Below, one piece after another: positions 7,090-61,129 of a stretch of 64,000 bases of DNA. Below the pieces are notes generated by a model. That model was not told the DNA's origin, made no database searches, and saw only the letters and a list, made by a program, of their open reading frames with translations. The stretch is taken from the NCBI RefSeq assembly GCF_963921235.1, contig NC_086108.1:29390001-29454000 (forward strand), written 5' to 3'. Position 1 is the stretch's first letter. Each line of letters starts with the position of its first letter. Position numbers and translations under genes: made by a program. The stretch comes from Mobula hypostoma. Taxonomy: Eukaryota.

Positions 7090-8625
7090 ACTTCATACTT
7101 TATTCTCGCCAAACAGTTGATACTAAAACGTACAATCATCACAGCGATATTTAGTTCTGCGCTTCCCACTCCCTGGATTACAAATCAATAGTAAATATTA
7201 AAAATTTAAATTATAAATCACAAATAGAACATAGAAAAATGGAAAATAAGGTAGTGTAAAAAAAACCGAGAGGCAGTTCTGGATATTTGGAGGGTACGGC
7301 CCAGATCCGGGTCAGGATCCGTTCAGCAGTCTTATCACAGTTGGAAAGAAGCTGTTCACAAATCTGGCCGTATGAGTATTCAAGCTCCTGAGCCTTCTCC
7401 CGGAGGAAAGAGGAACGAAAAGTGTGTTGGCTGGTGGGTTGTGTCCTTGATTATCCTGGCGGCACTGCTCTAACAGCGTGCGGTGTAAGGTGAGTCCAAG
7501 GACGGAAGATTGGTTTGTGTGATGCGCTGCGCCGTGTTCACAATCTTCTGCAGCTTCTTCCGGTCTTGGACAGGAAAACTTCCATACCAAGTTGTGATGC
7601 ACCCAAGAAGAATGCTTTCTACGGTGCATCTATAAAAAATTAGTGAGGGTTTTAGGGGACAGGCCAAGTTTCTTTAGTTTTCTCAGGAAGTAAAGGTGCT
7701 GGTGGGCCTACTTGGCAGTGGACTCTGCTTGGTTTGACCAAGTCAGGTCATTTGTGATATTGACCTCGAGGAACTTAAAGCTTTTGACCTGTTCCACATG
7801 CGCACCACCGATGTAAATTGGGTTGTGTGGTCCACAACTCCTTCTGAAGTCAACAACCAATTCCTTTGTTTTGCTGACGTTGAGGAATAGGTTATTGTCT
7901 TCGCACCACGCCACCAGGTTCTTAATTTCCTCTCTGTACTCAAACTCATCATTACTCGAGGTACAGCCTACAATTGTGGTGTCATCAGCAAACTTATATA
8001 TTGGGTTTGATGGAAACTTGGCTACACAATCATGGGTGTACAGTGAGTACAGCAGGGGGCTGAGTACACAGCCTTGTGGGGCACCGGTGCTCAGAGTGAT
8101 TGTAGAGGAGAGCTTGTCCCCTATTTTTACAGCCTGGGTCCTATCTGTGAGGAAGTTGAAGATCCAGTTGCAGATCTGAGTGCTAAGGCCCAGGAGTCAG
8201 TTTATTTGGAATGATGGTATTAAAGGCAGAGCTGTAGTCAATGAATAGGAGCCTTACACATGCGTCTTTATTCTCCAGGTGTTCTAAGGAGGAATGTAGG
8301 GCCAGAGAGATGGCATCTGCCATTGACCTGTTGCTCTGGTAGGCAAATTGCAAAGCGTCGAGGTTGACCGATAGACTGTGGTTGATGTGTGCCATAACCA
8401 ATCACTCAAAGCACTTCATAGCAATTGATGTCAGAGCCACAGGTCGATAGTCATTCAGGCATGCCACCTTGCTCTTCTTCGGCACTGGGATTATCGTTGC
8501 CTTCTTAAAACACGAGGGGATCTTAGACTGAAGCAAGGAGCGGTTGAAGATGTCAGCGAACACTCCAGCTAGCTCGTTTGCACAGGCCCAGAGAACCTGT
8601 CCCGGGACGCCATCTGGGCCCATCA
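7090..8625 (-). mobile_element. Rex1/Babar LINE, 5'-truncated RT portion with stops and frameshifts
   Basis: ORF pieces [59 protein letters not shown]. Confidence 0.9.
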
Positions 8626-8629
8626 ATTT

Positions 8630-10600
8630 GGCCTAAGATTTTTATTACTTTTCTATATGCTCCATTCCCACTTCCCCTACTACTGCAAACAGGGTTAAAG
8701 ATATGTATTTCTCTGTTTTCTCTCTGCTTTCTTTCTTGACTAGTGGGATTACATTTGCCACCTTCCAATCTGTGGGAACCACTCTAGAAACTATGAAATT
8801 CTAGACCTATGCCACCTCCAAGGACAATTCTTTCAAAATCTTGGATGCAGGTTATCAGGTTGTAAAGTTTTATCAGCCACCTGCCCCATCAATCTTTCCA
8901 ATACTTCCTTGACGAATACTAATTACTTATTTCCACCCTCTTGAGACCTGTTGCACTCAACTATTTCCTGGATGTTTATCAAGTCTCTTTACATTTTAAA
9001 TTTTTTCCCTGCCATTTACTTATTGCCTAATACGAACATACGTGTTTCCAACTATAAACACCCAACATCAACTTTTTTCTAACTGGTTCCATTTCATACT
9101 GTATATCTATAGAAACATTTACATTGTACTAATGTTTTTCTGTTTGGTGGTTCTTGTATTCTCCTCTCCCATTTCTTTTTCATATTTTTGCTCTCCTTTG
9201 CTGAATACTAAATTTTTTCTGAATCCTCAACCTCACTGCTTTTCGGCAGAAATAAACCTTGGCTGATACACTTACAAGATATATTTTGCACTTCTAAAGG
9301 TAAAATGCTTGTCATTCATTTAAATATCAAACTGCTTAACAGGCATGTCTTTAATTAGTTTCCCAGATTACAAAAACAAATTCACATTTTATAATTTGAT
9401 AGTTTAATTTACTTGGATTTAAGGTCTTGACTTCAGAGTTAACCAAATCACTTCCAAATTTGATCTAAAATCCTATAATCTTATGACTTCTTGTTCTTGA
9501 TGGCCCCTATCTAGCTATAAAATTATTAATCCTTCTTCATTGTACAACAGTGAATATTAAAAAAGTTAGTTTTCCTCAATTTGTTAAAATGCTATCTTGT
9601 ACACACTTTATAAATTTGCCCTCCACGTTATTATTGCTAATGTGGTTTGCCAAAGTTCCCCAAGGTCATTTTAGTATCTTTATTACAGATTTCTTGATTT
9701 TTACTACTGTATACCCCATACTTGCCCTCACATGAATCCTTTATCTCTTCCATGCCCACTATTTAGATTAGGCGTTAACTATAACCTCAGTTATTTCAAT
9801 TTCTAGGGTACTGATCACAGCTCGAATCGTGAAGACCATTCCATCAGAACAACCCCTGCTGCTCATAGTGTCTCTGATTTCACACAAACTTTTGAGCCAT
9901 GCTTTTTACTGGGATCGAAGTGACCCTCTACAAATGTACATGTTGCTCAGATAATCATAGCTGGATTACAACCTGACAGGTTCCCTTTGGTCTTTAGCTT
10001 CTCTTATACCTTCAAAAAAATCTTCCTTCTTAGTTCATTCTAAGTCTCCATCATGGGTTTCCAAATGGACCATTACAACTTGAATTTTCCCCTCCTTTTC
10101 CAAGTTCCTCTCCAACCAAACCGTGAAGAACTTAAAGAGTATCAAGCAGGTAGCACAGCCCTTGGGTCTACGGGTTGTGGCTCTAGTGACCAGTATTTAT
10201 ACTTCTTACTGTCTATTACTACCACATTCCTTTCCACTCCCTCTAATGCATCTCACTCCATATGCTACCATCACTTTGCTCATCCCTCGTTGCCTCTGTT
10301 CTCACTGACAGACTACAAAAAAATTTCTACCTTTTAGACAATGGCAAAAGGTGTGGCTCTTTCAATTGCCTCCCTCAGTAACACCCCTCCGGTCCATCCT
10401 ATTACTGCATCGTTTAATCTAAGGGATATCATGCTCTTTTGGGGCAAAATCCCCAGGTAGTTTTCCCTCTCCCAGATACACCACAGTGTCTGAATGTTGG
10501 CCTTCAGCTCACCACCTCTGAACCAAAAATCCTCAAACTCCAGATAGTTACTATAGATCACGTTGATTTCCATCTGTTCCCATCACCTGCCCTGTCACAG
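8630..10600 (-). mobile_element. Highly decayed old CR1 LINE (continues at about 6090-7020, interrupted by the Rex1)
   Basis: Remnants such as DWKVANVIPL-like sequence at about 8740-8770 and CR1 3'-like sequence at 6090-6450. Confidence 0.45.
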
Positions 10601-13676: not shown

Positions 13677-14983
13677 ATTTAGTGGCTTCTTTGACAGGAA
13701 ACATTTCCAGCAATGTGTTAACATATCGAGCTAACTGATACCAATGTGAATAGCAACTGAATTTAAATATACACAAGATCAAAAGTAATAAACATCGTAA
13801 TATTTAACTTCCCATTCTCTTCAAATAAAGATGACAAGAAAACAACATCTCATAATACAAAATCTTCTGGTGGATATCCCCACATTGGATTACCCAATTA
13901 CATCATATTCACTACTCAAGTCAAGATACACCATGCTTCTTCATCCTCTGAACATTTTCGACTGTGTCCCTTCTTCATGTGAAGTTCTCTCTCGTTCTCC
14001 ACTAACATTGTCACTGAGCTATCCCATTTTCCATCATTCACCACCTCTTTAGCAGAAGGACACCTAGCTTAGGAAGGGCATCTGATGCTTCTTCTAGCCT
14101 GTCATCTAGAAGCAACTCTACCCCTTCTTTCACCTGAGTGGAATTAAATCCTGACCTATTTTAACATACCCCTTTGGAAGGAAATTCAGTCCTGGCTTAC
14201 TGGCAACCTTCTAACACTACTTTCTTCTTTCCCTCAACCTCTTCATAATTCTTGTCTTAGACTCCCTTGAAAAATTAAATTTGGTCCAGTGAATCTTCTC
14301 CAGCATTCCTCTGCTGCTCTCTCTGCCCCTACCATCACCAATTCCTCTACCCATCTTCCTCACCACTACATTGGGTTATACCACTCTTTTCTAATTTGCT
14401 TGACCACACTTTATTCATTAAAATAATTACCCACATGCAATTCCACAAGATATTAACAAATCATATTTTATTTATAGTCCAAAATCATCCAAGTAGCCAA
14501 ATCAATCATTAAAGCCAACTAAATATCTATAAGTTTGTTCATAAGAGAACACTGAAGCGAAAGCTGAGTCTGAAATACTCAGAAGGGAAAGAGGGGATAG
14601 AAGAAACAAGGTGCAGGTTCACATACCATCAAACTGAAATATTTTGTTTATTTTACTGGGAAAACCATCCCAATTCGAAGAAGGAGTCTGAGAGTCTGAG
14701 TGGGAGTGCCGAGAAAGAGATTTTTCAAATTTTCGTTATTTTTTTTCTCCAACGGCTTTCTGAGAGGCGGGACTGCGCAGGCGTGTGACGTCGGGCAGTG
14801 CAGCGCGGCAGATTTAAAAGGAACAGAGCCTCAGAGAGCGGGCAGCGTAGTTTGCGGGCTGCGGAGTGAGCCGGGAGCAGAGTGAAGACTTAAGGGCTTC
14901 GGCTCACCGGGCTTAGGCGGAAGCGGGCGAGGCGAGGAAGGTTTGACATTCATTTTCTGTTGCTATTTGAGGAGAGGGGCATT

Positions 14984-15919
14984 ATGACTGTGAGGGCAGT
15001 TTGCTGTTCTCGGTGTCGGATGTGGGAGGCCCTGGAGTCTCCAAGCCTCCCGGACGTCTACATCTGCGCCAAGTGCATCGAGATGCAGCTCCTAAGGGAC
15101 CGCGTTACGGAACTGGAGCTGCAGCTCGATGACCTTCGTCTGGTCAGGGAGAGCGAGGAGGTGATAGAGAGGAGTGGAAGGCAGGTGGTCACGCCGGGGC
15201 CACGGGAGGCAGACAAGTGGGTCACGGTTAGGAGGGGGAAGGGGAAAAGGCAGGTGATGGGGAGTACCCCGGTGGCTGTGCCCCTTAACAACAGGTACTC
15301 CTGTTTGAGTACTGTTGGGGGGCACAGCTTACCCGGGGGAAGCGACAGTGGCCCTGCCTCCGGCACAGAGTCTGGCCCTGTAGCTCAGAAGGGTAGGGCA
15401 AGGAAGAGGAGGGCAGTTGTGATAGGGGACTCGATAGTAAGGGGGTCAGATAGGCGATTCTGTGGACGCAGTCCAGAGACTCGGATGGTAGTTTGCCTCC
15501 CTGGTGCCAGGGTCCGGGATATTTCTGATCGTGTCCAAGATATCCTGAAGTGGGAGGGTGAAGAGCTAGAGGTCCTGGTACATATAGGTACCAATGACAT
15601 AGGTAGGAAAAGGGATGAGGTCCTGAAAGAAGAACATAGGGAGCTAGGAAGGGAGTTGAGAAAAAGGACCGCAAAGGTAGTAATCTCGGGATTACTGCCT
15701 GTGCCACGCGACAGTGAGAGTAGGAATGCGATGAGGTGGAGGATAAATGCGTGGCTGAGGGATTGGAGCAGGGGGCAGGGATTCAAGTTTTTGGATCATT
15801 GGGACCTCTTTTGGCGCAGGTGTGACCTGTACAAAAAGGACGGGTTACACTTAAATCCTAGGGGGACCAATATCCTGGCAGGGAGATTAGCGGGGGCTAC
15901 TGAGGTGACTTTAAACTAG
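14984..15919 (+). CDS. CR1 ORF1p: Cys-rich zinc finger, coiled coil and SGNH esterase domain
   Basis: CxxC...CxxC, LRDRVTELELQL, GDSIVR, HIGTND and DGLHLN motifs; first ATG at 14984. Confidence 0.92.
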   Translation: MTVRAVCCSRCRMWEALESPSLPDVYICAKCIEMQLLRDRVTELELQLDDLRLVRESEEVIERSGRQVVTPGPREADKWVTVRRGKGKRQVMGSTPVAVPLNNRYSCLSTVGGHSLPGGSDSGPASGTESGPVAQKGRARKRRAVVIGDSIVRGSDRRFCGRSPETRMVVCLPGARVRDISDRVQDILKWEGEELEVLVHIGTNDIGRKRDEVLKEEHRELGRELRKRTAKVVISGLLPVPRDSESRNAMRWRINAWLRDWSRGQGFKFLDHWDLFWRRCDLYKKDGLHLNPRGTNILAGRLAGATEVTLN

Positions 15920-15924
15920 AATGG

Positions 15925-18924
15925 TTGGGGGGTGGGAATCAAATTAAAGCGGCTAGGTGTGAGGAGGTTAGTTCACAACAGAGGGATGGGAACCAGTGCA
16001 GAGAGACAGAGGGGTGTAAAGTGAGCGTAGAAGCAAAAAGTACAAAGGGAAAAAGTAAAAGTGGCAGGCCGACAAATCCAGGGCAAGCATTAAAAAGGGC
16101 TAAGAGAGTTGTAAAAGAGCGCCTGAAGGCTTTATGTGTCAATGCAAGGAGCATTCGTAATAAGGTGGATGAATTGAAAGTGCAGATTGTTATTAATGAT
16201 TATGATATAGTTGGGATCACAGAGACATGGCTCCAGGGTGACCAGGGATGGGAGCTCAACGTTCAGGGATATTCAATATTCAGGAGGGATAGACATGAAG
16301 GAAGGGGAGGTGGGGTGGCATTGCTGGTTAAAAAAGAGATTAACGCAATAGAAAGGAAGGACATAAGCCGGGAAGATGTGGAATCGATATGGGTAGAGCT
16401 GCGTAACACTAAGGGGCAGAAGACGCTGGTGGGAGTTGTGTACAGGCCACCTAACAGTAGCAGTGAGGTCGGAGATGGTATTAAACAGGAAATTAGAAAT
16501 GTGTGCAATAAAGGAACAGCAGTTATAATGGGTGACTTCAATCTACATGTAGACTGGGTGAACCAAATTGGTAAAGGTGCTGAGGAAGAGGATTTCTTGG
16601 AATGTATGCGGGATGGTTTTTTGAACCAACATGTCGAGGAACCGACTAGAGAGCAGGCTATTCTGGACTGGGTTTTGAGCAATGAGGAAGGGTTAATTAG
16701 CGATCTTGTCGTGAGAGGCCCCTTGGGTAAGAGTGACCATAATATGGTGGAATTCTTCATTAACATGGAGAGTGACGTAGTTAATTCAGAAACAAAGGTT
16801 CTGAACTTAAAGAGGGGTAACTTTGAAGGTATGAGACGTGAATTAGCTAAGATAGACTGGCAAATGACACTTCAAGGATTGACGGTGGATATGCAATGGC
16901 AGGCATTTAAAGGTTGCATGGATGAACTACAACAATTGTTCATCCCAGTTTGGCAAAAGAATAAATCAAGGAAGGTAGTGCACCCGTGGCTGACAAGAGA
17001 AATTAGGGATAGTATCAATTCCAAAGAAGTAGCATACAAATTAGCCAGAGAAAGTGGCTCACCTGAGGACTGGGAGAAATTCAGAGTTCAGCAGAGGAGG
17101 ACAAAGGGCTTAATTAGGAAGGGGAAAAAAGATTATGAGAGAAAACTGGCAGAGAACATAAAAACGGACTGTAAAAGCTTTTATAGATATGTAAAAAGGA
17201 AAAGACTGATAAAGACAAATGTAGGTCCCCTGCAAACAGAAACAGGTGAATTGATTATGGGGAGCAAGGACATGGCAGACCAATTGAATAATTACTTTGG
17301 TTCTGTCTTCACTAAGGAGGACATAAATAATCTTCCAGAAATAGTAAGGGACAGAGGGTCCAGTGAGATGGAGGAACTGAGCGAAATACATGTTAGTAGG
17401 GAAGTGGTGTTGGGTAAATTGAAGGGATTGAAGGCAGATAAATCCCCAGGGCCAGATGGTCTGCATCCCAGAGTGCTTAAGGAAGTGGCCCAAGAAATAG
17501 TGGATGCATTAGTGATAATTTTTCAAAACTCGTTAGATTCTGGACTAGTTCCTGAGGATTGGAGGGTGGCTAATGTAACCCCACTTTTTAAAAAAGGAGG
17601 GAGAGAGAAACCGGGGAATTATAGGCCCGTTAGCCTAACGTCGGTGGTGGGGAAACTGCTGGAGTCAGTTATCAAGGATGTGATAACAGCACATTTGGAA
17701 AGCGGTGAAATGATCGGACAAAGTCAGCATGGATTTGTGAAAGGAAAGTCATGTCTGACGAATCTCATAGAATTTTTTGAGGATGTAACTAGTAGAGTGG
17801 ATAGGGGAGAACCAGTGGATGTGGTATATTTGGATTTTCAAAAGGCTTTTGACAAGGTCCCACACAGGAGATTAGTGTGCAAACTTAAAGCACACGGTAT
17901 TGGGGGTAAGGTATTGGTGTGGGTGGAGAATTGGTTAGCAGACAGGAAGCAAAGAGTGGGAATAAACGGGACCTTTTCAGAATGGCAGGCGGTGACTAGT
18001 GGGGTACCGCAAGGCTCAGTGCTGGGACCCCAGTTGTTTACAATATATATTAATGACTTGGATGAGGGAATTAAATGCAGCATCTCCAAGTTTGCGGATG
18101 ACACGAAGCTGGGTGGCAGTGTTAGCAGTGAGGAGGATGCTAAGAGGATGCAGGGTGACTTGGATAGGTTGGGTGAGTGGGCAAACTCATGGCAGATGCA
18201 ATTTAATGTGGATAAATGTGAAGTTATCCACTTTGGTGGCAAAAATAGGAAAACAGATTATTATCTGAATGGTGGCCGATTAGGAAAAGGGGAGGTGCAA
18301 CGAGACCTGGGTGTCATTATACACCAGTCATTGAAAGTGGGCATGCAGGTACAGCAGGCGGTGAAAAAGGCGAACGGTATGCTGGCATTTATAGCGAGAG
18401 GATTTGAGTACAGGAGCAGGGAGGTACTACTGCAGTTGTACAAGGCCTTGGTGAGACCACACCTGGAGTATTGTGTGCAGTTTTGGTCCCCTAATCTGAG
18501 GAAAGACATCTTTACCATAGAGGGAGTACAAAGAAGGTTCACCAGATTGATTCCTGGGATGGCAGGTCTTTCATATGAAGAAAGACTGGATGAACTGGGC
18601 TTGTACTCGTTGGAATTTAGAAGATTGAGGCGGGATCTGATTGAAACGTATAAGATCCTAAAAGGATTGGACAGGCTAGATGCGGGAAGATTGTTCCCGA
18701 TGTTGGGGAGGTCTAGAACGAGGGGTCACAGTTTGAGGATAGAGGGGAAGCCTTTTAGGACCGAGGTTAGGAAAAACTTCTTCACACAGAGAGTGGTGAA
18801 TCTGTGGAATTCTCTGCCACAGCAAACTGTTGAGGCCAGTTCATTAGCTATGTTTAAAAGGAAGTTAGATATGGCCCTTGTGGCTACAGGGGTCAGGGGG
18901 TATGGAGGGAGGGCTGGGTTCTGA
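15925..18924 (+). CDS. CR1 ORF2p: AP endonuclease plus reverse transcriptase (no upstream in-frame AUG)
   Basis: 999-codon open frame with NARS, ITETW, YRPP, GDFN, SDH (APE) and DFQKAFD, PQGSVLGP, FADD (RT). Confidence 0.95.
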   Translation: MGGGNQIKAARCEEVSSQQRDGNQCRETEGCKVSVEAKSTKGKSKSGRPTNPGQALKRAKRVVKERLKALCVNARSIRNKVDELKVQIVINDYDIVGITETWLQGDQGWELNVQGYSIFRRDRHEGRGGGVALLVKKEINAIERKDISREDVESIWVELRNTKGQKTLVGVVYRPPNSSSEVGDGIKQEIRNVCNKGTAVIMGDFNLHVDWVNQIGKGAEEEDFLECMRDGFLNQHVEEPTREQAILDWVLSNEEGLISDLVVRGPLGKSDHNMVEFFINMESDVVNSETKVLNLKRGNFEGMRRELAKIDWQMTLQGLTVDMQWQAFKGCMDELQQLFIPVWQKNKSRKVVHPWLTREIRDSINSKEVAYKLARESGSPEDWEKFRVQQRRTKGLIRKGKKDYERKLAENIKTDCKSFYRYVKRKRLIKTNVGPLQTETGELIMGSKDMADQLNNYFGSVFTKEDINNLPEIVRDRGSSEMEELSEIHVSREVVLGKLKGLKADKSPGPDGLHPRVLKEVAQEIVDALVIIFQNSLDSGLVPEDWRVANVTPLFKKGGREKPGNYRPVSLTSVVGKLLESVIKDVITAHLESGEMIGQSQHGFVKGKSCLTNLIEFFEDVTSRVDRGEPVDVVYLDFQKAFDKVPHRRLVCKLKAHGIGGKVLVWVENWLADRKQRVGINGTFSEWQAVTSGVPQGSVLGPQLFTIYINDLDEGIKCSISKFADDTKLGGSVSSEEDAKRMQGDLDRLGEWANSWQMQFNVDKCEVIHFGGKNRKTDYYLNGGRLGKGEVQRDLGVIIHQSLKVGMQVQQAVKKANGMLAFIARGFEYRSREVLLQLYKALVRPHLEYCVQFWSPNLRKDIFTIEGVQRRFTRLIPGMAGLSYEERLDELGLYSLEFRRLRRDLIETYKILKGLDRLDAGRLFPMLGRSRTRGHSLRIEGKPFRTEVRKNFFTQRVVNLWNSLPQQTVEASSLAMFKRKLDMALVATGVRGYGGRAGF

Positions 18925-19825
18925 GTTGGATGATCAGCCATGATCATAATAAATGGCGGTGCAGGCTCGAAGGGCCGAATGGCCTACTCCTGCACCTATT
19001 TTCTATGTTTCTAAATAAAGAAAGCTTTTTGGTGCCAGGTTTACATTGCCTGTTTCTTGATGCAAGTTACAGAACCGTCCAAAAATGTGCCCTATCTTAC
19101 AGTCCTTTTTGTGTTGCATGACCAACAGAGCCTAGTGCAATAAAAAAAATCTGTTGTACCACAAAATCAATTTGGCTGTTTCAAACATATATTTGTGATT
19201 ATTACTAAATTTAGGCATGTATCCAGTGTAAATAACCTGCTGATTTCTTGGAGAAAAAAAAGAGAAAATGTCTAGTTAGTTAAGAGATTGCATTGAACAC
19301 TGACCTGAAATAACAGCACAAACACCCCGCTGCCTCATTAGTTTGATGGTTTGAAAATAATTGCTGATTAGTGGAAATGTCCTCATTAAAGTGTACACAT
19401 TTTGAACACAAAGAAATTACACAGCACTCTCATATGAACCAACCCTATTATGCAAAATTCAGCCTTAATAAATAACTTACATATCCAAATGAATTCTACG
19501 TGCCTCTCCATCTCTCTCCTTTGTCATTACCAGAGAGAAAAGAGATTATGATGCACTGGTAATATACAAATAATAAACTTACACACTCAAGGTTTCCAGA
19601 GAGACTGGGAACTTTGCAGTCACCTCTTTCATAGTTTTACAAATGGGATCCCCTTTTCAGGAAGACACAATGCACAAAACAGACAAAAGAAAGCATGAAA
19701 GAGGGGGAGTGAATAAGAAAATGAGATTTAAAAAAAAGGAAATATTATGTAGAAATATATTTGGTGAAAAAGGGAAAATCTGCTGCAGATTGTTCTAGCT
19801 GATGTACAACAGCATTGAGCACATA

Positions 19826-20269: not shown

Positions 20270-23200
20270 GGAACTTCATTGGTAGGTAATTTTTGGAAAG
20301 GTTCAAAAATGACAGGGTTGTGGTCATGGGTGATTTCAACTTCCCTAATATTGATTGGCACCTCCTTAGTGCAAGAGGTTCTGAGGACAGAATTTAATTA
20401 GGGGTGTGTCTAGGAAAGATTCCTGACACAATACATGAATAGGCTGACGAGGAGATGCCATACTAGATCTTGTACTAGGCAATGAACTTGGTTTAGGTGA
20501 CAGATCTCTTGGTGAGCACTTCAGAGGCACTGACCACAATTCAATGACCTTTAGACTTAGACAAGGATAGGAGAGGACAGTACAGGGAAGTATTTAATTG
20601 GGAGAGGGTTAATTATGATACTATTAGGCAGGAACTTAGGAGGGTAAATTAGGAGCAGATGTTCTCAGGGAAATGTGGAGGTTGTTTAGGGATCCCTTGT
20701 GTGGGGTTCTGAATAGGTCTGTCCCATGAGGCAGGGAAAGGATGGTAGGGTAAAGGACTGTGGTTGACAAGGTAGATGGAATATTTAGTCAAAAGGAAGA
20801 AGGAAGCATACTTCAGGAAGCAAAGGAAGCATAGTTTAGGAAGCAAAGATCAGACATGGCTCTTGAGAGTTATAAGGTAGCCAGGAAAGAGTTTAAGAAT
20901 GAACATAAGGGCATGAGAAAAGGACTGAGAAAGTCTTGTTGAGTAGGATTAAGGAAAACCCCAAGGTGTTCTACACATACATCAAAACAGGAGGATTTAT
21001 TAGAGTGAGGGTAGAGCCAATAACAGGTAACAGAGGAAAGGGCATGAAGTCAGAGGTAGGGGAGGTCCTCAATGAATACTTTGCTTCAGTATTCACCAGT
21101 AAGAGAGACTTTAATGAAGCAGAGATAATATTTGAACAGGCTAATCTGCTGGAACGTGTTAAGGTTAAAAAGGATGATGTGGTGGAACTTCTGAAAAACA
21201 TTAAAATAGATAAAGCCCTTAGGTTACTAAAGGAAGCGCTGTGTATTTGATGAACTTGGTGTTTTCACTGGCCACAGGAGTAATGTCAGAAGATCGAAGG
21301 ATGGCAGATGTTATAAATTTGATCAAGAAAGGTAATAGGGATAATCCTAGTAATTATAGACCAGAGACTCTTACATCAATGGTGGGAAAACTATTGGAGA
21401 GAATTCTAAGAGATAGGACTGAAGAGGTTTTGGGGGATATAATCTAATTAGGGATAGTCAGCATAACTGTGATGGGCAGGTCATACCTCAAGAGTCTGAC
21501 CAACATTTTTGAGAAAGTGACAAACCGAATTGATGATGGTAGACTGGTGAATTCCATGTATATGAATATTAGTAATGTGTTCAACAAGGTTCCCCATGGT
21601 AGGATCAGAAAGTCAGGAGGTGTGAGATGGATGAAAACTTGGTTGTGTGGATTTAACAACACAGGGGTGTGTTCTCAGTCCCATCCTCTATTCTCTTTTC
21701 ACCCATGACTGCTTTACCATTCACTCCACCAACGCCATTGTCAAATTTGTTGACGATACCACCCTAATAGGTATCATATCAGACTGTGATGAGACAGCCT
21801 ATAGGGAGGAGGTACAGCATTTGACAGAATGGTGTTGTCATAATAACCTGGACTTGAACATCACAAAAACCAAGGAGCTGATAGTAGACTTCAGGAAATC
21901 AAAGCGCATCGAGCACTCTGCTCTGCACATATACGGGAAAGAGGTGGAGAGAGTAGAGAGTTTCAAGTTCCTCAGCGTCCACATCTCGGCTGACCTCACC
22001 TGGACTGCCCATATCTCTTATCAGGTGCGGAAGGCCCAACAGAGGCTCTACTTCCTAAGGAAGCTAAAGCACGCTCTCCTCCCTCATCACCTGCTGATCA
22101 ACTTCTATGGGACAACTATAGAGAGCCTCCTGACGTATTGCTGTGCAGTGTGGTTTGCCAGCTGCACAGAACAGAACAGAAAGGACTTACAGCTGGTGGT
22201 GAGGGTAGCAGAGCGGGTTATTGGCACAACATTACCCTCCCTCAGAGACATTTATACTGACAGACTTCAAAAGAAGGCTACTTGTATTTCAGAGGATCCT
22301 ACTCACCCTGGACATCACCTGTTTTCCCCTCTACCTTCTGGGAAGAGATACAGAGCATTAAGGACGAAAACAAAGAGACTCCTTAACAGCTTCTACCCAC
22401 AAGCAGTGAAATGTATAACACCCCCTTCCCTTCTCCTGCCCCCCTCCTAAGACGGCGGCAGCTAAATGCATCACACTTCCAGGAATGGCAGGTGTGCAAT
22501 AGTCCTACCCCCCCATCCATATATTATTAATTTTGGACTGTACTCCTGTGGTTTTAGAGTTTATTTTATGTATATATTCTTTGTCATGCTACAAAACGTT
22601 GAGCTGCTAAACTGTGTTTCATTGCTGCACAACAATGACAATAAAGATATTCTATTCTATTAAAATTGGCTTGCCCAGAGAAAGGAGCATATAATAGCAG
22701 ACGATCTATGACCAGTGGTGTTCTGCAGGGATCTGTCCTGGGATCCCTGCTCTTTGCGGTTTTTATTAATGACTTAGATGAGGAAGTGGAAGGGTGGTTT
22801 AGTAATTTCGCAATGACAAAGGTTGGTGGTGGCGCTGTGGATAGTGTAGAAGGCTGTTGTAGGTTAAAATAGGACAGCGAAAGGATGCGGAGCTAGGCTG
22901 AGAAGTGGCAGATGGAGCTCAATCCAGAAAAGTTTGAAGTGACACACTTTAGAAGGGCAAACCTTAAGGCAGAGTACAAGGTTAATGGCAGGATTCTTAC
23001 CACTGTGGAGGAACAGAGGGATCTTAGGGTTCATATTCAGAGATTCCTCAAAGTTAACATGCAAGTTGATAGGATGGTCAAGAAGGCCTATGGTGTGTTG
23101 CCCTTCATTAGTCAGGGGACTGAATTCAAGAGGCAAGAAGTAATGTTGTAACTCTATAAAACTCTGGTTGGACTACACTTGGTATATTGTGTTCATTTCT

Positions 23201-23700
23201 GGTCATCTCATTATGGGAAGGATATGGTGCTTACTTAGGGTGCAGTGGAGATTTAACAAGATGTTGCCTGGATTAGAGAAACACGTTTTATGAGGAAAGG
23301 TTGGGCACTCTATGGCTATTCTCTTTGGAGTGAAGGAGGATGAGAGGTGACCTGATAGAGGAATACAAGGTGATGAGAGGCAAAGTGTGGATAGCTAGTG
23401 CCTTTTCCCAGGGAGCTAATGGCTAGTATGAGAAGACATGCTTTTAAGGTGACTGGAGGAAAGTACAGAGGTGTCAAAGGCAGTTGTATTTTTTTAAAAA
23501 AACACAGTTGTAGGTGGAAGAAACACACTTCCAAAGTGGTAGTAGAGGTGTGTAAATTAGGGAGATTTAAGACACTCTTAGATAGGCACAAAGAAAATAA
23601 AAAGGAAAGCTATGTAGGAAGGAAGAGTTACACTGATCTTGGAATAAGTTAGAAGAACAGGAAAATATCATGGCTGAAGTGACTGTGTTCTATGATTTGA
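20270..23700 (+). mobile_element. Decayed CR1 LINE (ORF2 fragments) interrupted by a Rex1 element
   Basis: GDFNFP, IKENPKVFY, NYRP, KVPHGR and QGSVLG fragments with many stops; CR1-like 3' end. Confidence 0.85.
21653..22660 (+). mobile_element. Rex1/Babar LINE 3' part nested in CR1
   Basis: 267-aa ORF with QGCVLSPILYSLFTHDC, KFVDDTT, TKTKELIVDFRK; AATAAA plus (TATTC)n tail. The flanking CR1 sequence rejoins across the insertion. Confidence 0.9.
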
Positions 23701-24726: not shown

Positions 24727-27700
24727 AGACTTCTGCCTGCGGCTCGATGGAGTGATACATAAATTTTGTGGCTGCCTTTAATTCCTCCTTTTCCCCAGTT
24801 TAAACCTTAAATTTTTAACTTTTGTTTCTCGGATCGTAGAGGGAAATAGTTGTCATTATGTCACATCCTTTAAGAAGTGGAAAGTTGCCTTTTGAATCCA
24901 GCAATGGAAAGGGAAAAACTTTGAAAGAAAATTCGGAAGATATGCCTGTCTGGGCTGAGCGTTTGGAACGTGCGTTGATGGCTCTCGACAACAAAATAGA
25001 CAATAACATTTCTGAGTTGAAGTCATTCCAACAGAGTTTTCAGACTATTGAGGAAAATATTATTTCCTTGAATACAGCGTTTAAAGAATCGAAACATCAG
25101 ATTGTGGATATTTCAACCTGCTTGGAACAGGCTCAACGTAAAATTGTTGATTTAGAGGCGAAGTCTCGTCGGAATAATATACGAATTATCGGACTTAAGG
25201 AAGATTCTGAGAGTGGGAATTTATTGGACCATTTTGCCAATTTGTTTCAATCTTTGTTTCCGGATATTCTACCTCAACCTCCCGATATAGAAACATAGAA
25301 AATAGGTGCAGGAGTAGGCCATTCGGCCCTTCGAGCCTGCACCGCCATTTATTATGATCATGGCTGATCATCCAACTCAGAACCCCGCCCCAGCCTTCCC
25401 TCCATACCCCCTGATCCCCGTAGCCACAAGGGTCATATCTAACTCCCTCTTAAATATAGCCAATGAACTGGCCTCAACTGTTTCCTGTGGCAGAGAATTC
25501 CACAGATTCACCACTCTCTGTGTGAAGAAGTTTTTCCTAATCTCGGTCCTAAAAGGCTTCCCCTTTATCCTCAAACTGTGACCCCTTGTTCTGGACTTCC
25601 CCAACATCGGGAACAATCTTTCTGCATCTAGCCTGTCCAATCCCTTTAGGATTTTATACGTTTCAATCAGATCCCCCCTCAATCTTCTAAATTCCAACAA
25701 GTACAAGCCCAGTTCATCCAGTCTTTCTTCATATGAAAGTCCTGCCATCCCAGGAATCAATCTGGTGAACCTTCTTTGTACTCCCTCTATGGCAAGGATG
25801 TCTTTCCTCAGATTAGAGGACCAAAACTGCACACAATACTCCAGGTGTGGTCTCACCAAGGCCTTGTACAACTGCAGTAGTACCTCCCTGCTCCTGTACT
25901 CGAATCCTCTCGCTATAAATGCCAGCATACCATTCGCCTTTTTCACCGCCTGCTGTACCTGCATGCCCACTTTCAATGACTGGTGTATAATGATATCCAG
26001 GTCTTGTTGCACCTCCCCTTTTCCTAATCGGCCACCATTCAGATAATAATCTGTTTTCCTATTTTTCCCACCAAAGTGGATAACTTCACATTTATACACA
26101 TTAAATTGCATCTGCCATGAATTTGCCCACTCACCCAACCTATCCAAGTCACTCTGCATCCTCTTAGCATTCTCCTCACAGCTAACACTGCCGCCCAGCT
26201 TCGTGTCATTCGCAAACTTGGGGATGCTGCATTTAATTCCCTCATCCAAGTTATTAATATATATTGTAAACAACTGGGGTCCCAGCACTGAGCCTTGCGG
26301 TACCCCACTAGTCACCGCCTGCCATTCTGAAAAGGTCCCGTTTATTCCCACTCTTTGCTTCCTGTCTGCTAACTAATTCTCCATCCACATCAATACCTTA
26401 CCCCCAATACCGTGTGCTTTAAGTTTGCACACTAATCTCCTGTGTGGGACCTTGTCAAAAGCCTTTTGAAAATCCAAATATACCACATCCACTGGTTCTC
26501 CCCTATCCACTCTACTAGTTACATCCTCAAAAAATTCTATGAGATTCGTCAGACATGATTTTCCTTTCACAAATCCATGCTAACTTCGTCCAATGATTTC
26601 ACCGCTTTCCAAATGTGCTGTTATCACATCTTTGATAACTGACTCCAGCAGTTTCCCCACCACCGACGTTAGGCTAACCGGTCTATAATTCCCCGGTTTC
26701 TCTCTCCCTCCTTTTTTAAAAAGTGGGGTTACATTATCCACCCTCTAATCCTCAGGAACTAGTCCAGAATCTAACGAGTTTTGAAAAATTATCACTAATG
26801 CATCCACTATTTCTTGGGCTACTTCCTTAAGCACTCTAGGATGCAGACCATCTGGCCCTGGGGATTTATCTGCCTTCAATCCCTTCAATTTACCTAACAC
26901 CACTTCCCTACTAACATGTATTTCGCTCAGTTCCTCCATCTCCCTGGACCCCCTGTCCCCTACTATTTCTGGAAGATTATTTATGTCCTCCTTAGTGAAG
27001 ACAGAACCAAAGTAATTATTCAATTGGTCTGCCATGTCCTTGCTCCCCATAATCAATTCACCTGTTTCTGTCTGTAGGGGACCTACATTTGTCTTTACTA
27101 GTCTTTTCCTTTTTACATATCTATAAAAGCTTTTACAGTCAGTTTTTATGTTCCCTGCCAGTTTTCTCTCATTATCTTTTTTCCCCTTCCTAATTAAGCC
27201 CTTTGTCCTCCTCTGCTGAACTCTGAATTTCTCCCAGTCCTCAGGTGAGCCACTTTCTCTGGCTAATTTGTATGCTTCTTCTTTGGAATTGATACTATCC
27301 CTAATTTCTCTTGTCAGCCACGGGTGCACTACCTTCCTTGATTTATTCTTTTGCCAAACTGGGATGAACAATTGTTGTAGTTCATCCATGCAACCTTTAA
27401 ATGCTTGCCATTGCATATCCACTGTCAATCCTTTAAGTGTCATTTGCCAGTCTATCTTAGCTAATTCACGTCTCATACCTTCAAAGTTACCCCTCTTTAA
27501 GTTCAGAACCTTTGTTTCTGAATTAACTATGTCACTCTCCATCTTTATGAGGAATTCCACCATATTATGGTCACTCTTACCCAAGGGGCCTCTCACGACA
27601 AGATTGCTAATTAACCCTTCCTCATTGCTCAAAACCCAGTCCAGAATAGCCTGCTCTCTAGTTGGTTCCTCGACATGTTGGTTCAAAGAGCTCATAGACT

Positions 27701-37649: not shown

Positions 37650-40600
37650 CTATCAGGGAGTTAGGAAGGAAGTTGAGAGGCAGGACCACAAAGCTAGTAA
37701 TCTCGGGATTACTGCCTGTGCCATGTGACAGTGAGCATAGGAATAGAATGAGGTGGAGGATAAATGTGTGGCTGACGGATTGCAGCAGAGGGCAGGGATT
37801 CAGATTTCTGGATCATTGGGATCACTTTGGGTGCAGGTGTGACCTGTACAAAAAGGACGGGTTGCACTTGAATCCCAGGGGGACCAATATCCTGGCGGGC
37901 AGGTTTGCAAAGGTTATTGCGGAGAGTTTAAACTAGGATTGCTAAGGGGTGGAAATTAAACTGAAGAGACGGAGGAGAGGGCGGTTGGCTCACAAATAGA
38001 GAAAGCTTGGAGACAGTGCAAGAGGGAGGATAGGCAGGTGATAGAGAAGGGACGCGCTCAGACTGATGGTTTGAGATATGTCTATTTTAATGCAAGAAGC
38101 ATCATGAACAAAGCGGATGAGCTTAGAGCGTGGATCAGTACTTGGAGCTATGATGTTGTGGCCATTACAGAGACTTAGATGACTCAGGAGCAGGAATGGC
38201 TACTTAGAGTGCCAGGCTTTAGATGTTTCAGAAAGGACGGGGAGGGAGACAAAAGAGGTGGGGGCGTGGCACTGTTGATCAAAGATAGTGTCACAGCTGC
38301 AGAAAAGGAGGAAGTCATGGAGGGATTGTCTGTGGGTGGAAGTTAGAAACAGGAAGGGGTCAATAACTCTACTGGGTGTTTTTTTTATAGACCACCCAAT
38401 AGTAACAGGGACATCGAGGAGCAGATAGGGAGGCAGATTCTGGAAAGGTGTAATAGTAACAGGGTTGTTGTGGCGGGAGATTTTAATTTCCCAAATATCA
38501 ATATCCCTAGAGCGAAGGGTTTAGATGGGGTGGAGTTTGTTAAGTGTGTTCAGGAAGGTTTCTTGACACAATATGTAGATAAGCCTACAAGAGGAGAGGC
38601 TGTACTTGATCTGGTCAGGTGTCAGGTCTGTCAGTGGGAGAGCATTTTGGAGATGGTGATCACAATTCTATCTCCTTTACCATAGCTTTGGAGAGGGATA
38701 GGAACAAACAAGTTAGGAAAGTGTTTAATTGGACTAAGGGGAAATATGAGGCTGTCAGGCGGAAACTTGGAAGCATAAATTGGAAATAGATGTTTTCAGG
38801 GAAATGTACAGAAGAAATGTGGCAAATGTTCGGGGATAATTGTGTGGAGTTCTGCATAGGTACATTCCAATGAGACAGGGAAGGGATGGTAGGGTACAGA
38901 AACTGTGGTGTACAAAGGCTATTATAAATCTAGACAAGAAGAAAAGAAGAGATTACGAAAGGTTCAAAAACTAGGCGATGGTAGAGATCTAGAAGATTAT
39001 AAGGCTAGCAGTAAGGAGCTTAAAAATGAAATTAGGAGAGACAAAAGGGGCCATAAGAAGGCCTTGGCGGACAGGATTAAGGAAAACCCCAAGGCATTCT
39101 ACAAGTATGTGAAGAGCAAGAGGATAAGACACGAGAGAATAGGACCAATCAAGTGTGACAGTGGAAAAGTGTGTATAGAACCGGAGGAGATCGCAGAGGT
39201 ACTTAATAAATACTTTGCTTCAGTATTCACTACGGAAAAGGATCTCGGTGATAGTAGGGATAACTTACAGCAGACTGAAAAGCTTGAGCATGTAGATATT
39301 AAGAAAGAGGATGTGCTGGAGCTTTTGGAAAGCATCAAGTTGGATAAGTCACCGGGACCAGACGAGAGGTACCCCAGGCTACTGTGGGATCAGATTGCTG
39401 AGCCTCTGGCGATGACCTTTGCATCATCAATGGGGACGGGAGAGGTTCCGGAGGATTCGAGGGTTGCGAATGTTATTCCCTTATCCAAGAAAGGGAGTAG
39501 AGGTAGCCCAGAAAATTATAGACCAGTGAGTCTTACTTCGATGGTTGATAAGTTGATGGAGAAGATACTGAGAGGCAGGATTTATGAACATTTGGAGAGG
39601 CATAATATGATTAGGAATAGTCAGCATGGTTTTGTCATGGGCCTAAGGAGCCTGATTGTATATTTTGAGGATGTGACTAAACACGTTGATGAAGGTAGAG
39701 CAGTAGATGTAGCGTATATGGATTTCAGCAAGGCATTTGATAAGGTACCCCATGCAAGGCTTAGTGAGATAGTAAGGAGGCATGGGATCCAAGGGGACAT
39801 TGCTTTGTGGATCCAGAACTGGCTTGCCCACAGAACACAAAGAGTACTTGCAGATGGGTCATATTCTGCATGGAGATTGGTGACCAGTGGTGGGCCTCAG
39901 GGATCTATTCTGGGTTCCTACTCTTCATGATTTTTATAAATGACCGGGATGAGGAAATGGAGGGATGGGTTAGTAAATTTGATGATGATACAAAGGTTGA
40001 GGGTGTTGTGGACAGTGTGGAGGGCTGTCAGAGGTTATAGCGGGACATTGATAGGATGCAAACTTGGGCTGAGAAGTCGCAGATGGAATTCAACCCAGAT
40101 AAGTTTGAGGTAGTTCATTTAGGTAAGTCAAATATGATGGCAGAATATAATATTAATGCTAAGACTCTTGGCAGTGTGGAGGATCAGAGGGATCTTGGAG
40201 TCTGAGTCCATTAGACATTCAAAGTTCCGGCGCGGGTTGACACTGTGGTTAAGAAGGCATAGGGTGCATTGGCCTGCATCAATCATGGATTGAGTTTAGG
40301 AGCCGGGAGTTAAAGTTGCAGCTATATAGGACCCTGATCGGACTCCACTTGGAATACTGTGCTCAGTTCTGGTCGCCTTACTATAGGAAGGATGTGGAAA
40401 CCATAGGAAGGGTGCAGAGGAGATTTACAAAGATGTTGCCTAGATTGGGGAACATGCCTTATGAGAATAGGTTGAGTGAACTCAGCCTTTTCTCGTTGGA
40501 GCGACGGAGGATGAGAGGTGACCTGATAGAGGTATACAAGATGATGAGAGGCATTGATCGGGTGGATAGTCAGAGGCTTTTTCCCAGGGCTGAAATGGCT

Positions 40601-40885
40601 AGCACGAGAGAGCACAGTTTTAAGGTGCTTGGTAGTAGGTACAGAGGAGATGTCAGGCGTAAGTTTTTTTTACGCAGAGAGTGATGAGCGTGTGGAATGG
40701 GCTCCTGGCGACAATGGTAGAAGCGGATACAATAGGGTCGTTTCAGAGACTCCTGGATAGGTACATGGAGCTCAGAAAAATAGAGGGCTATGGGTAGCCC
40801 TAGGTAATTTCTAAAGTAAGGGCATGCTCGGCACAGCTTTGTGGGCTGAAGGGCCTGTATTGTGCTGTAGGTTTGCTATGTTTCT
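37650..40885 (+). mobile_element. CR1 LINE (second subfamily), from ORF1 C-terminus to 3' end, decayed
   Basis: DGLHLNPRG...ESLN*, then APE and RT fragments (341-aa ORF) and tail ctatgtttcta. Confidence 0.92.
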
Positions 40886-47529: not shown

Positions 47530-48214
47530 ATTTAAGGTTAAGTTGTGATATTCTTGAACAGTGGAACAAGTTCGAGGAGTCAAGTGACCTCTTCTTGCTC
47601 CCAAATTCTTTTCGATTATGTTTGAATGAAAAGTTGCTGTCAATGTCACAGACTAACGATGGAGAAGGATGACAGTTTCCCTGCTAATGCAATTCCAAAT
47701 TCAGGACCAGTGTTGTAAAGTGTTATAGGCCATTCAGCTCATATTACCCATAGAGTACTCACGCTCCACACAAAGCTCCACTCATCTCTCTTTGTCTAAC
47801 TCCATTTACTCCTCTTCTATATACAGTATGGTAATCTCTTGGATACATTTTTAACAGGATTTGAGCACATCCACTTGTTTAACCCCATCCGTGTGACAGA
47901 GTGTCTGACTGGAGAGGGTGGTGTCAGACAATGTGCCCAAGGCAGTGTAGCCAACAGAGTTTAACTAGGCCCACCTTCCTGCATTATTAAAATCCACAGG
48001 AAGGTTTTCTCATCAGTGAAATTAGTTATTGTATTGTTAAGATTTTGACTCTTAGGCCACAAAAGAACAACAAATAGTTTCTTGTCAGCAAGTTTGAGGT
48101 TATATGGTGGAAAGTGGGAGTGTGTTGGCATTTTGTGAAGCTAGCTTCGCTCAACTGTTATCTTTGCCACTGACTTGAACTTCTTTGCAAAATGAAGGTA
48201 CTGGCCATCCACAC

Positions 48215-58154: not shown

Positions 58155-61075
58155 GCAAACATAGAAAACCTGCGGCACAATACAGGCCCTTCAGCCCACA
58201 ATGCTGTGCTGAACATATACTTACTTTAGAAATTACCTTGGGTTACCTTATTTTCAAGCCCTCTATTTTTCTAAGCTCCATGTATCTATCCAAGAGTCTC
58301 TTAAAAGGCCTTCTTGTATCCGCCTCCACTACAGTCGCTGGCAGCCCATTCCATGCACTCACCACTCTCTGTGTAAAAAAATTACCCCTAACATACCCTC
58401 TGCACCTATTTCCAAGCACCTTAAAACTGTGCGCTCTCTTGTTAGCTATTTCAGCCCTGGGAAAAAGCCTCTGACTATCCACAAGATCAATGCATCTCAT
58501 CATCTTATACACCTCTATCAGGTCACCTCTAATCCTCCGTCGCTTCAAAGAGAAAAAGCCACGTTCACTCAACCTATTCTCATAAGGCATGCTCCCCAAT
58601 CCAGGCAACATCCTTGTAAATCTCCTCTGTACCCTTTCTATAGTTTCCACATCCTTCCTGTAGTGAGGTGACCAGAACTGAGCACAGTACTCCAAGTGGG
58701 GTCTGACCAGAATTCTATACAGCTGTAACATTACCTCTTGGCTCTTGAACTCAATCCCATGGTTGATGCCTTCTTAACCACACAGTCAACCTGCACAGCA
58801 GCTTTGAGTGTCCTATGTTCTTGGACCACAAGATCCCTCTGATCCTCCACACTGCCAAGAGTCTTACCATTAATACTATATTCTGCCATCATATTTGACC
58901 TACCAAAATGAACCAGCTCACACTCATCTGGGTTGAACTCCATCTGCCACTTCTCAGCCCAGTTTTGCATCCTATCAATGTCCTGCTGTAACCTCTGACA
59001 TCCCTCCACACTATCCACAACACCCCAAACTTTGTGTCATCAGCAAATTTACTAACCCATCCCTCCACTTCCTCATCCAGGTCATTTATAAAAACTACAA
59101 AGAGAAAGGATCCCAGAACAGATCCCTGAGGCACACCACTGGTCACCAGCCTCCATACAGTATATGACTCTACAACTACACTTTGCCTTCTGTGGGCAAG
59201 CCAATTCTGGATCCACATAGCAAGGTCCCAAGCCTCCTTACTTTCTCAATAAGCCTTGTATGGGGTACCTTATCAAATGCCTTACTGAAATCCATATACA
59301 CTACATCTACTGCTCTACATTAATCAATGTGTTTAGTCACATCCTCAAAAATCTTTTTACACCACGTGAAATGCTCCCCCATGATGCTCCCCTAAATTGC
59401 AAAATGCTCTCCCACTGAGAGACCTGACGCCTGACCAGGTTCATTTCCCAATACCAGATCAAGTACAGACTCTCATCATGTAGGTTTATTTACATAATAT
59501 GTCAGGAAACCTCCTGAAGACACCTAACAAACTCCACCCTGTCTAAACCCCTTGCTCTAGGGAGATGCCAATCAATATCAGGGAAATTAAAATCTCCCAC
59601 CATGACAACCCTGTTATTATTGCTTCTTTCCAGAATCTGTCTCCCTATCTGCTCCTCGATGTCCCTGTTACTATTGGGTGGTCTATAAAAAACACGCAGT
59701 AGGTCTACTGACCCCTTGCTGTTCCTAACTTCCACCCACAGAGACTCTGTAGACAATCCCTCCATGATATCCTCTTTTTCTGCAGCCGTAAAGCTATCTC
59801 TGATCAGCAATGCCAATCCCCCACCTCTTTTGCCTCCCTACCTGTCCTTTCTGAAACATTTAAAACACTTTAAGTAGCCATTCCTGCCCCTGAGCCATCC
59901 ACATTTCTGTAATGGCCATAGCATCATAGCTCCAAGTACTGATCCATGCTCTAAGTTCATCCACTTTGTTCGTGATACTCCTCGCATTAAAATAGACACA
60001 TCTCAAACCATCAGTCTGAGCATGTCCCTTCCCTATCACCTGCCTATCCTCCCTCTCACACTGTCTGCAAGCTTTCTCGAATCGTGAGCCAACCGTTCTT
60101 CCTCTATCTCTTCAGTTCAGTTCCTACCGCCCCCCCCCCCAGAGATTTGAGTTTAAACTCCCCTCACTAGCCTTAGCCAACCTCCCTGCCAGGATGTTGG
60201 TCACCCTCGGGTTCAAGTGCAACCTGTCCTTTTGTACAGGTCACTCCTGCCCCAAAAGAGGTCCCAATGATCCAGAAATCTGAATCCCTGCCACCTGCTC
60301 CAATCCCTCAGCCACGCATTTATCCTCCACCTTACTCTATTCCTACACTCACTGTCGCGTGGCACAGGCAATAATCTTGTTGTTACTACCTTTGAGGTCC
60401 TGCTTCTGAACTGCCTTCCTAACTCCCTGTAGTCTGTTTTCCAGACCTCCTCCCTTTTCCTACCTATGTCGTTGGTACCAATATGTACCAGGACCTCTGG
60501 CTGCTTACCTTCTCACTTCAAGATACCGTAGATGCGATCAGAAACATCCTGGATCCTGGCACCCGGGAGGCAAACTACTATCCGTATTACTTTTCTGCAT
60601 CCACGGAATCGCCTGTCTGACCCCCTAACAATAAAGTCCCCTATCACTGCTGTCATCCTCTTCCTTTCCCTACCCTTCTGGGCCACAGGGCCAGACTTTG
60701 TGCCAGAGACACAGCCACTGTTTCTTACCCCAGGTAGTTCATTTCCCCACCAACAGTACCCAAACAGGAGTACTTATTGTTAAGGGGGACAGCCACAGGG
60801 ATACAGTACTCTCTAGTATCTGATTCTTGCCCTTCCCTCTGCTGACTGTTACCCACTTATCTGTCTCCCGAAGCCCCAGTGTGACTACTTGCCTATAGCT
60901 CCTCTCTATCACCTCCTCTATTTCCCTGACCCGATGAAGGTCATCGAGCTGCATCTCCAGTTCCCTAAGCCGGTCCCTAAGGAGCTGCAGCTCGACACAT
61001 CTGGTGCAGATGTGGCCGTCTGGGAGGCTGGGAGTCTCCCAGACCGCTCACATCTGCAAGAGCAGTGCTACTGAT
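58155..61075 (-). mobile_element. CR1 LINE with ORF1 and internally deleted ORF2, decayed
   Basis: ORF1-like QLDDLHRVRE, APE YRPP and GDFNFP, deletion near 59355, then RT PQGSVLG and FADD, and the 3' tail. Confidence 0.9.
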
Positions 61076-61129
61076 CATATCTGTTACCTCCTAAACAAGA
61101 GGTAAAAATTGGACAGGGGATGATACAAG

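Follow-up and report, generated by a model that had tools for sequence, protein, structure and literature searches.

Programmed -1 ribosomal frameshifting takes place at a heptamer of the form X_XXY_YYZ, usually followed by a stimulatory RNA structure 5-9 nt downstream (PMC3542737), and U_UUA_AAC is among the heptamers on which mammalian ribosomes shift most readily (PMC5009743; here and below, what is said of the cited papers refers to excerpts of them). Here we analyse a U_UUA_AAC heptamer that stands at the junction between the two open reading frames (ORFs) of a CR1-type long interspersed nuclear element (LINE), in a stretch of 64,000 nt of the Mobula hypostoma genome (NC_086108.1, positions 29,390,001 to 29,454,000, forward strand; hereafter the window, numbered from its first letter). 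An earlier note on this DNA had proposed that a -1 shift at this heptamer fuses ORF1 to ORF2, by analogy with coronaviruses. The heptamer, its register and the predicted tandem slip are indeed those of viral and retroviral -1 signals such as that of infectious bronchitis virus (PMC3542737, PMC5009743). By contrast, the analogy does not extend to what follows the shift site: there is no conserved stem-loop 5-9 nt on, but an immediate stop codon and a G-run from 10 nt, and a Pfam scan found no protease domain in ORF1 or ORF2.

Among LINEs, the described route to ORF2 is reinitiation (PMC3894237, PMC5972666, PMC10275272). SART1 and mammalian L1, like the focal CR1, have a bicistronic RNA that needs a low-level route to ORF2; restart at an AUG has been described for SART1 (UAAUG overlap) and proposed for mammalian L1 (63-nt spacer; PMC5972666), whereas no AUG is conserved in the focal CR1. 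A -1 shift in LINE-type elements is already in print for Dictyostelium TRE5-A and TRE3-A, where it is stated to be needed for ORF2 in the figure legend of a review (PMC5911963). These resemble the focal CR1 in being APE-type non-long-terminal-repeat (non-LTR) elements with a -1 shift for ORF2, a likeness of description and not of shift site, and differ from it in being amoeba elements aimed at tRNA genes, with an ORF1 described as of unknown function. For two-ORF Penelope-like elements, a figure legend states that a frameshift with a pseudoknot can set ORF1 apart (PMC8557442), and esterase ORF1s occur in such elements (PMC3905857); compared by description only, they form a different class of retroelement, one that has a GIY-YIG nuclease and whose stimulator is structured.

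The focal element comes closest to the CR1s whose ORF1 is of type IV (zinc finger/leucine zipper plus esterase; CR1 subgroup 7, PMC4120745), which have the same Cys motif and SGNH esterase in ORF1 and the same APE endonuclease and reverse transcriptase (RT) in ORF2. The word frameshift is absent from the excerpts of PMC4120745 and PMC3905857, and the recoding signal is what the present analysis adds to the described CR1s. The excerpts of PMC4255032, PMC5006619 and PMC5408684 likewise contain nothing on a CR1 recoding signal, and that of PMC5009743 does not mention CR1. Full-text literature searches, which did not cover the primary CR1 descriptions or the Repbase/Dfam notes, returned no report of a CR1 frameshift. 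We know of no experimental test of one, and primary CR1 papers or Repbase notes quite possibly mention the overlap or suggest a frameshift.

Organization of the element and of its ORF1-ORF2 junction

The features on which the analysis turns are the following.

14673..19012, + strand: full-length young CR1-type LINE (non-LTR retrotransposon), delimited by copy alignment, junction matches and the 3' repeat.
14984..15919, + strand: ORF1, 311 aa, with an N-terminal CxxC...CxxC motif and a C-terminal SGNH esterase (Pfam, PDB), ending ...EVTLN before the stop.
15901..15903, + strand: TGA in the -1 frame, two codons 5' of the heptamer (sequence).
15904..18924, + strand: ORF2, -1 frame, 1006 codons, comprising a 77-codon linker after the heptamer, the APE endonuclease and the reverse transcriptase (ORF, Pfam).
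15910..15916, + strand: slippery heptamer T_TTA_AAC (U_UUA_AAC), predicted -1 shift site (conservation counts).
15917..15919, + strand: ORF1 stop TAG, adjoining the heptamer (sequence, clusters).
15921..15947, + strand: 8-codon mini-ORF in the +1 frame, not conserved.
15927..15938, + strand: G-rich tract GGGGGGTGGGAA, 10 nt past the heptamer, candidate stimulator (cluster G-run, codon use).
16141..16749, + strand: APE endonuclease domain, beginning at NARS (profile match to the L1 endonuclease 1vyb, E=3.4e-9).
17599..18252, + strand: reverse transcriptase domain (Pfam PF00078, E=1e-33).

The esterase of ORF1 is recognized by Pfam PF13472 over aa 146-294 (E=2.3e-15) and by PDB entry 4c1b, itself an ORF1 esterase (E=2.7e-27), while ORF2 matches PF03372, PF14529 and PF00078, the APE domain preceding the RT. 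A single-sequence search of the PDB with the endonuclease gave no match; a profile search then matched 1vyb, and in this alignment, off whose printed form the L1 residue numbers were counted, the Glu at 16222-16224 pairs with L1 E43.

ORF1 ends ACT TTA AAC TAG, so that the heptamer is in X_XXY_YYZ phase in the zero frame and directly abuts the stop. The -1 frame is closed by the TGA at 15901-15903 and then open from 15904 to 18924; as a result, ORF1 and ORF2 overlap by only 16 nt, and an ORF2 start farther upstream is excluded in the focal family. The first in-frame AUG of ORF2, at 16528, lies inside the endonuclease domain, two residues ahead of the position of L1 D145 and past the residues matching E43 and Y115. 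A product begun there lacks the residues aligned to E43 and Y115 and no longer matches PF03372, which we count in favour of a frameshift. As for the ATG at 15921, it is in the third frame, ends after 8 codons and is not conserved, for which reason we judge the mini-ORF incidental. The coordinates and frames given in the earlier note all agree with the sequence. The fusion computed for a tandem slip is 1,313 aa long (about 1310 in the note), with the junction EVTLN-LEWLGGGNQIK and the predicted tryptic junction peptide LAGATEVTLNLEWLGGGNQIK.

A single slippery site is weak evidence, because some XXXYYYZ heptamer precedes 40 of the 6,701 stop triplets of the window, counted on both strands and in every frame; comparison must therefore carry the case. 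Exact TTTAAAC plus a stop occurs twice in the window (15910 and 37927), each time at the end of a CR1 ORF1.

The heptamer is conserved at the nucleotide level between lineages

We gathered 74 distinct junction copies, which form 28 clusters with a median between-cluster identity of 54% over the upstream 71 nt. Sixty copies (19 clusters) are from this genome: the first 30 pattern matches and others hand-picked for diversity, two in the window. The other 14 (9 clusters) are from other contigs, 11 of them from one metagenome with amniote-type ORF1 ends, the source of which we take to be most likely a bird. T_TTA_AAC is the majority sequence in 27 of the 28 clusters (ties in two-member clusters being assigned to the first member), the lone exception being one decayed copy, and it is exact in 68 of the 74 copies.

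On a neighbour-joining tree of the clusters, the four silent positions of the heptamer have undergone 0, 1, 0 and 0 parsimony changes, as against 4-14 (median 6) for each of 23 upstream wobble positions and 7 for the third base of the ORF1 stop. The residue before Leu-Asn takes nine identities (A, G, D, S, H, T, F, C, P), and its codon ends in T in 28/28 clusters. Majority stops after the heptamer are TAG (13/28) and TAA (15/28), never TGA (0/28): TAA and TAG swap freely while TGA is the majority in no cluster, which suggests that the shift signal may reach the A after the U of the stop.

The same constraint is visible in proteins. Homologues of the focal ORF1 occur in turtles, squamates and birds. 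Among 120 homologues, 77 have the motif and a tail of normal length, and in 73 of these the last two residues are LN, with entries from ray, shark, coelacanth, frog, turtle, squamate and hummingbird among them. Residues that have no U-ending codon are found at position -3 in 2 of 84 proteins; at -4 the count is 36, and at -5 it is 35. A few esterase ORF1-like proteins whose tail is five residues longer (P0106, P0108-P0110 and P0112) likewise end in LN and may represent a Penelope-type esterase junction.

Pattern matches in metagenomes and prokaryote genomes (at least 117) served mainly as a control: 103 were set aside as non-CR1 and used for that only, and 14 were retained as CR1-like on the basis of profile score, ORF2 match or best protein match, partly by eye. 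Among the matches listed for the same pattern, the heptamer is present in 0 of 105 non-CR1 matches and in 10 of 14 CR1-like ones. Viral contigs gave no relative by alignment, and two unrelated matches by pattern scan. Note that two database entries, P0022 (a CR1 ORF1 filed under Pseudomonas aeruginosa) and L215 (a 257-nt CR1-like contig in a Jeotgalibacillus assembly), look like contamination by animal DNA.

The heptamer is maintained in copies of this genome

More than 14,000 CR1-type junctions are present in this genome, and we scanned it with a pattern in which the DGxHL esterase motif, the Gly and the stop were fixed and the upstream wobble bases and the Leu and Asn codons were left free. 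The exact heptamer was found at 13,082 of 14,296 sites (91.5%). When the last two codons were left wholly free, it was found at 13,082 of 15,899 sites, the reversed-pattern control giving 41.

Within the heptamer we counted 739 silent transitions at 4 sites, or 1.4% per site, and 490 residue-changing ones at 3 sites, or 1.2% per site. Silent changes are thus about as rare as residue-changing ones, as fits neutral decay after insertion, with no silent variant having been amplified by an active master. The earlier note had singled out free synonymous variation of the heptamer as telling against a shift; tested across families, the heptamer does not vary in this way. The variant T_TCA_AAC was considered as a separate family and rejected overall, as it accounts for only 110 sites scattered over many families.

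ORF2 keeps the -1 phase across linkers of different lengths

We scanned 104 copies for the motif that begins the endonuclease; 67 were readable, of which one was spurious and 66 were kept. Of these 66 copies, 48 have the start of the endonuclease in the -1 frame; they belong to 14 clusters, and the start lies 105-330 nt away in them (linkers of 35-110 codons). In the focal family, the linker measures 77 codons in 47 of 52 copies and 86 codons in four, an in-frame change. Ten clusters are represented by one copy each with a stop-free -1 linker, for which it was selected; the other two frames of these linkers contain 51 and 63 stops.

The linker has no AUG in 7/9, 9/10, 5/5 and 7/10 of the in-phase copies of the four best-sampled families. 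A stop that overlaps or adjoins an in-frame AUG, as in SART1, characterizes one of the 28 clusters; in the focal element, the ATG at 15921 does not share the ORF2 frame.

Taken at the level of sequence, the silent fixation of the heptamer, the -1 phase held across linker lengths and the lack of a conserved start codon all support the -1 frameshift put forward in the earlier note. The junction signal is, on these comparisons, real, deeply conserved and of the recoding type, and programmed -1 frameshifting at U_UUA_AAC, which would yield a 1,313-aa esterase-endonuclease-RT fusion beside the plain ORF1 product, is very probably its best explanation. The tRNA-Leu and tRNA-Asn would together move back from UUA/AAC to UUU/AAA, after which decoding would continue with CUA. 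The UAR would end translation for most ribosomes and a minority would slip to produce the fusion, so that the balance between termination and slippage would set a ratio of the gag to gag-pol kind.

The region downstream of the heptamer

A G tract was also part of the earlier proposal. It is present, but its conserved portion begins 10 nt past the heptamer, at 15927, and not 6 nt past it. GGGG begins 8-12 nt past the heptamer in 22 of 28 clusters, the G content of the G-run stretch exceeds that of the next stretch in 68 of 71 copies, and the Gly codons of the G-run are GGG in 40 of 52 cases, compared to 27 of 91 in the focal ORF2 and 14 of 28 in ORF1. These counts are taken over related clusters and hence are not independent. 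Constraint on the encoded GxG offers another possible reading of this conservation.

A canonical stem-loop or pseudoknot 5-9 nt downstream was not found, using a folding program that does not handle pseudoknots; C residues with which the G-run could pair are, however, scarce in the focal downstream sequence. A scan of 41 copies for a distant partner of the G tract found none, the scan being a weak one (ORF2 coordinates were unmapped and many copies are decayed). The only recurring candidate partner, a C-rich stretch about 390-430 nt upstream that is among the top four in 9 of 41 copies, encodes CLPG and is explained by protein coding. In the most distant element, L102 (437-470), a CR1-like element whose ORF1 is about 25% identical to its best match and which keeps T_TTA_AAC_TAG, the G-run is replaced by a 9-bp hairpin about 10 nt downstream (z=-2.2). 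That the hairpin lies at the distance of the G-run suggests that this position is a stimulator slot.

Natural G-quadruplex stimulators of frameshifting are stated to be not known (PMC5009743). A linear stimulator has been described in PRRSV, where nsp1beta and PCBP stimulate the shift on CCCANCUCC, 11 nt from the shift site (PMC5009743). The likeness to the focal CR1, in which a short linear motif at a similar distance would likewise replace a structure, is one of analogy only: the CR1 motif is G-rich, and a protein bound to it is only hypothesised. With less assurance than for the shift itself, we suggest that stimulation comes from the adjoining stop together with the G-run 10 nt downstream, protein-bound or weakly folded, and not from a classical pseudoknot. 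The specific version in which a protein-bound G-run stimulates the shift is a tentative one that we consider rather unlikely.

Weighing frameshifting against other explanations

Several points weigh against programmed -1 frameshifting. The shift, the fusion and the stimulator are deduced from sequence. The junction DNA was drawn from a single genome, a metagenome of amniote type and three stray contigs, with all other species represented only by proteins, and the patterns demanded the DGxHL...N-stop spacing, so that lineages lacking the motif would escape them. Eighteen of the 66 readable copies are out of phase; 10 of these are within 2 nt of the mode of their family, and for four no other copy of the cluster was readable. 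T_TCA_AAC is carried by five similar copies of one divergent family (four at C58:1.53-3.65 Mb and one at C75:45.43 Mb), which may reflect local duplication or a small amplified subfamily. The focal downstream sequence folds no better than its shuffles (z=+0.55); z is -2 or lower in only 5 of 42 copies, which share no common fold, and only 13 of 42 are predicted to form a G-quadruplex. Finally, some clusters offer a possible start codon for ORF2. In 3/3 copies of cluster 7 (L232, L250 and L263; G000:C1), a UAAUG overlap puts the AUG in frame with ORF2, and an AUG or near-cognate codon lies within four codons of the stop (codons 4-7) in 15 of 28 clusters.

These codons could serve ribosomes that terminate at the UAR of ORF1 and start again close by, on an AUG or a near-cognate codon, the route described for other LINEs (PMC5972666, PMC3894237); to them can be added a linker AUG in 2/2 in-phase copies of cluster 21 and the in-frame TTG at 15925 in the focal element. 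Yet cluster 7 retains the heptamer, 13 of the 28 clusters have no such codon, and elsewhere its identity and place vary. Reinitiation also leaves the frozen silent positions upstream of the stop and the -1 phase unexplained, and we regard it as improbable at this junction. UGGGA is the calicivirus reinitiation motif; here the word sits 3' of the stop and not 5' of it, and GGGGA takes its place in several clusters. In some families, reinitiation may supply additional ORF2 alongside the shift and not in its place. Cluster 7, which pairs an intact heptamer with a SART1-like UAAUG overlap, provides a natural comparison of frameshifting and reinitiation. Alternatively, the heptamer and G tract could be a conserved DNA or RNA element that serves some other purpose, be it as an internal promoter, in 3'-end processing, in packaging or in protein binding, with ORF2 being made by other means. 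TTTAAA does resemble TATA-like and poly(A)-like words, and neither the folds nor the partner scan yielded a stimulatory structure; but such an element has no need of an X_XXY_YYZ register against the stop or of an ORF2 in the -1 phase, and ORF2 would still have no start codon ahead of the endonuclease in the four best-sampled families, which makes this explanation very improbable.

Joining of the two ORFs at the RNA level, by splicing or by a polymerase slippage that adds a base in the T/A run, is barely credible. TAG can serve as a 3' splice-site word, but 15 of 28 clusters have TAA and hence no AG there, and the T3A3 runs fall far short of the 9 bases in the runs for which transcriptional slippage has been cited (PMC5009743). 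Two stingray gene models (P0036 and P0121) do run ORF1 directly into ORF2 at ...G-FKL...; they are, however, single-copy predictions known as proteins alone, and probably stem from an indel in one copy or from correction of the gene model at the junction. One of the two carries the name of a host enzyme. GT..AG ends across the junction were found at none of the 15 of 74 joints listed (contigs of four runs), which has no bearing either way. A search for longer fused ORF1-ORF2 homologues gave five matches, all apparently chimeric gene models.

Ends, age and class of the element, and other CR1 copies in the window

The match to other copies begins at 14673 in 24 of 59, and the top 40 genomic matches to the 271-nt junction are all 100% identical, from which we conclude that the family is young. 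The 3' end was set by eye at the TTTCTATG-TTTCT repeat, and poly(A) is absent. CR1-clade 3' ends have a hairpin and a short terminal repeat instead of poly(A). A target-site duplication was looked for around the element and none was found. On sequence grounds we provisionally file the element as a CR1 with a type IV ORF1 (cf. PMC4120745), the choice of CR1 rather than L2 being based on the homology of ORF1 to turtle, squamate and bird proteins. The nearest named ORF1 homologue is a devil ray protein (97%). The remaining features are the following.

18958..18996, + strand: inverted repeat in the 3' untranslated region, 8-nt arms, ahead of the terminal repeat (sequence).
37927..37936, + strand: heptamer followed by TAG where ORF1 of a second CR1 ends, an older element from a different family (sequence).
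60151..60157, - strand: heptamer (60157-60151) of a third, decayed CR1, with TCA at the stop position (sequence).

CR1-like fragments cover much of the window: 25389-27686 (-), 37655-40794 (+), 48211-50018 (+), 58258-61110 (-), 20918-23381 (+) and 7684-9243 (-). At 25389-27686, the sequence shares 94% identity with the focal ORF2, whose first 239 codons are missing from it.

Implications for CR1 biology

A review regards the mode of translation of LINE ORF2s as an open question (PMC3894237), and the worked examples are of reinitiation. If CR1 ORF2 is reached by a -1 shift, the active enzyme would be an esterase-endonuclease-RT fusion that ties the polymerase to the ORF1 protein, which could explain cis action, and CR1 ORF2 annotations starting at an internal AUG would be truncated. 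CR1-type elements are very abundant, and their 60-100 nt cassette may hold a new kind of stimulator. A broader proposal, which we advance as a possibility with the odds against it, is that an invariant U_UUA_AAC shift operates in esterase CR1s across jawed vertebrates, driven not by RNA structure but by the adjoining stop and by a G-run, 10 nt downstream, bound by a host G-tract binder or by the ORF1 protein; if true, it would be a trans-activated frameshift in an endogenous LINE, retained since the split between cartilaginous fish and tetrapods.

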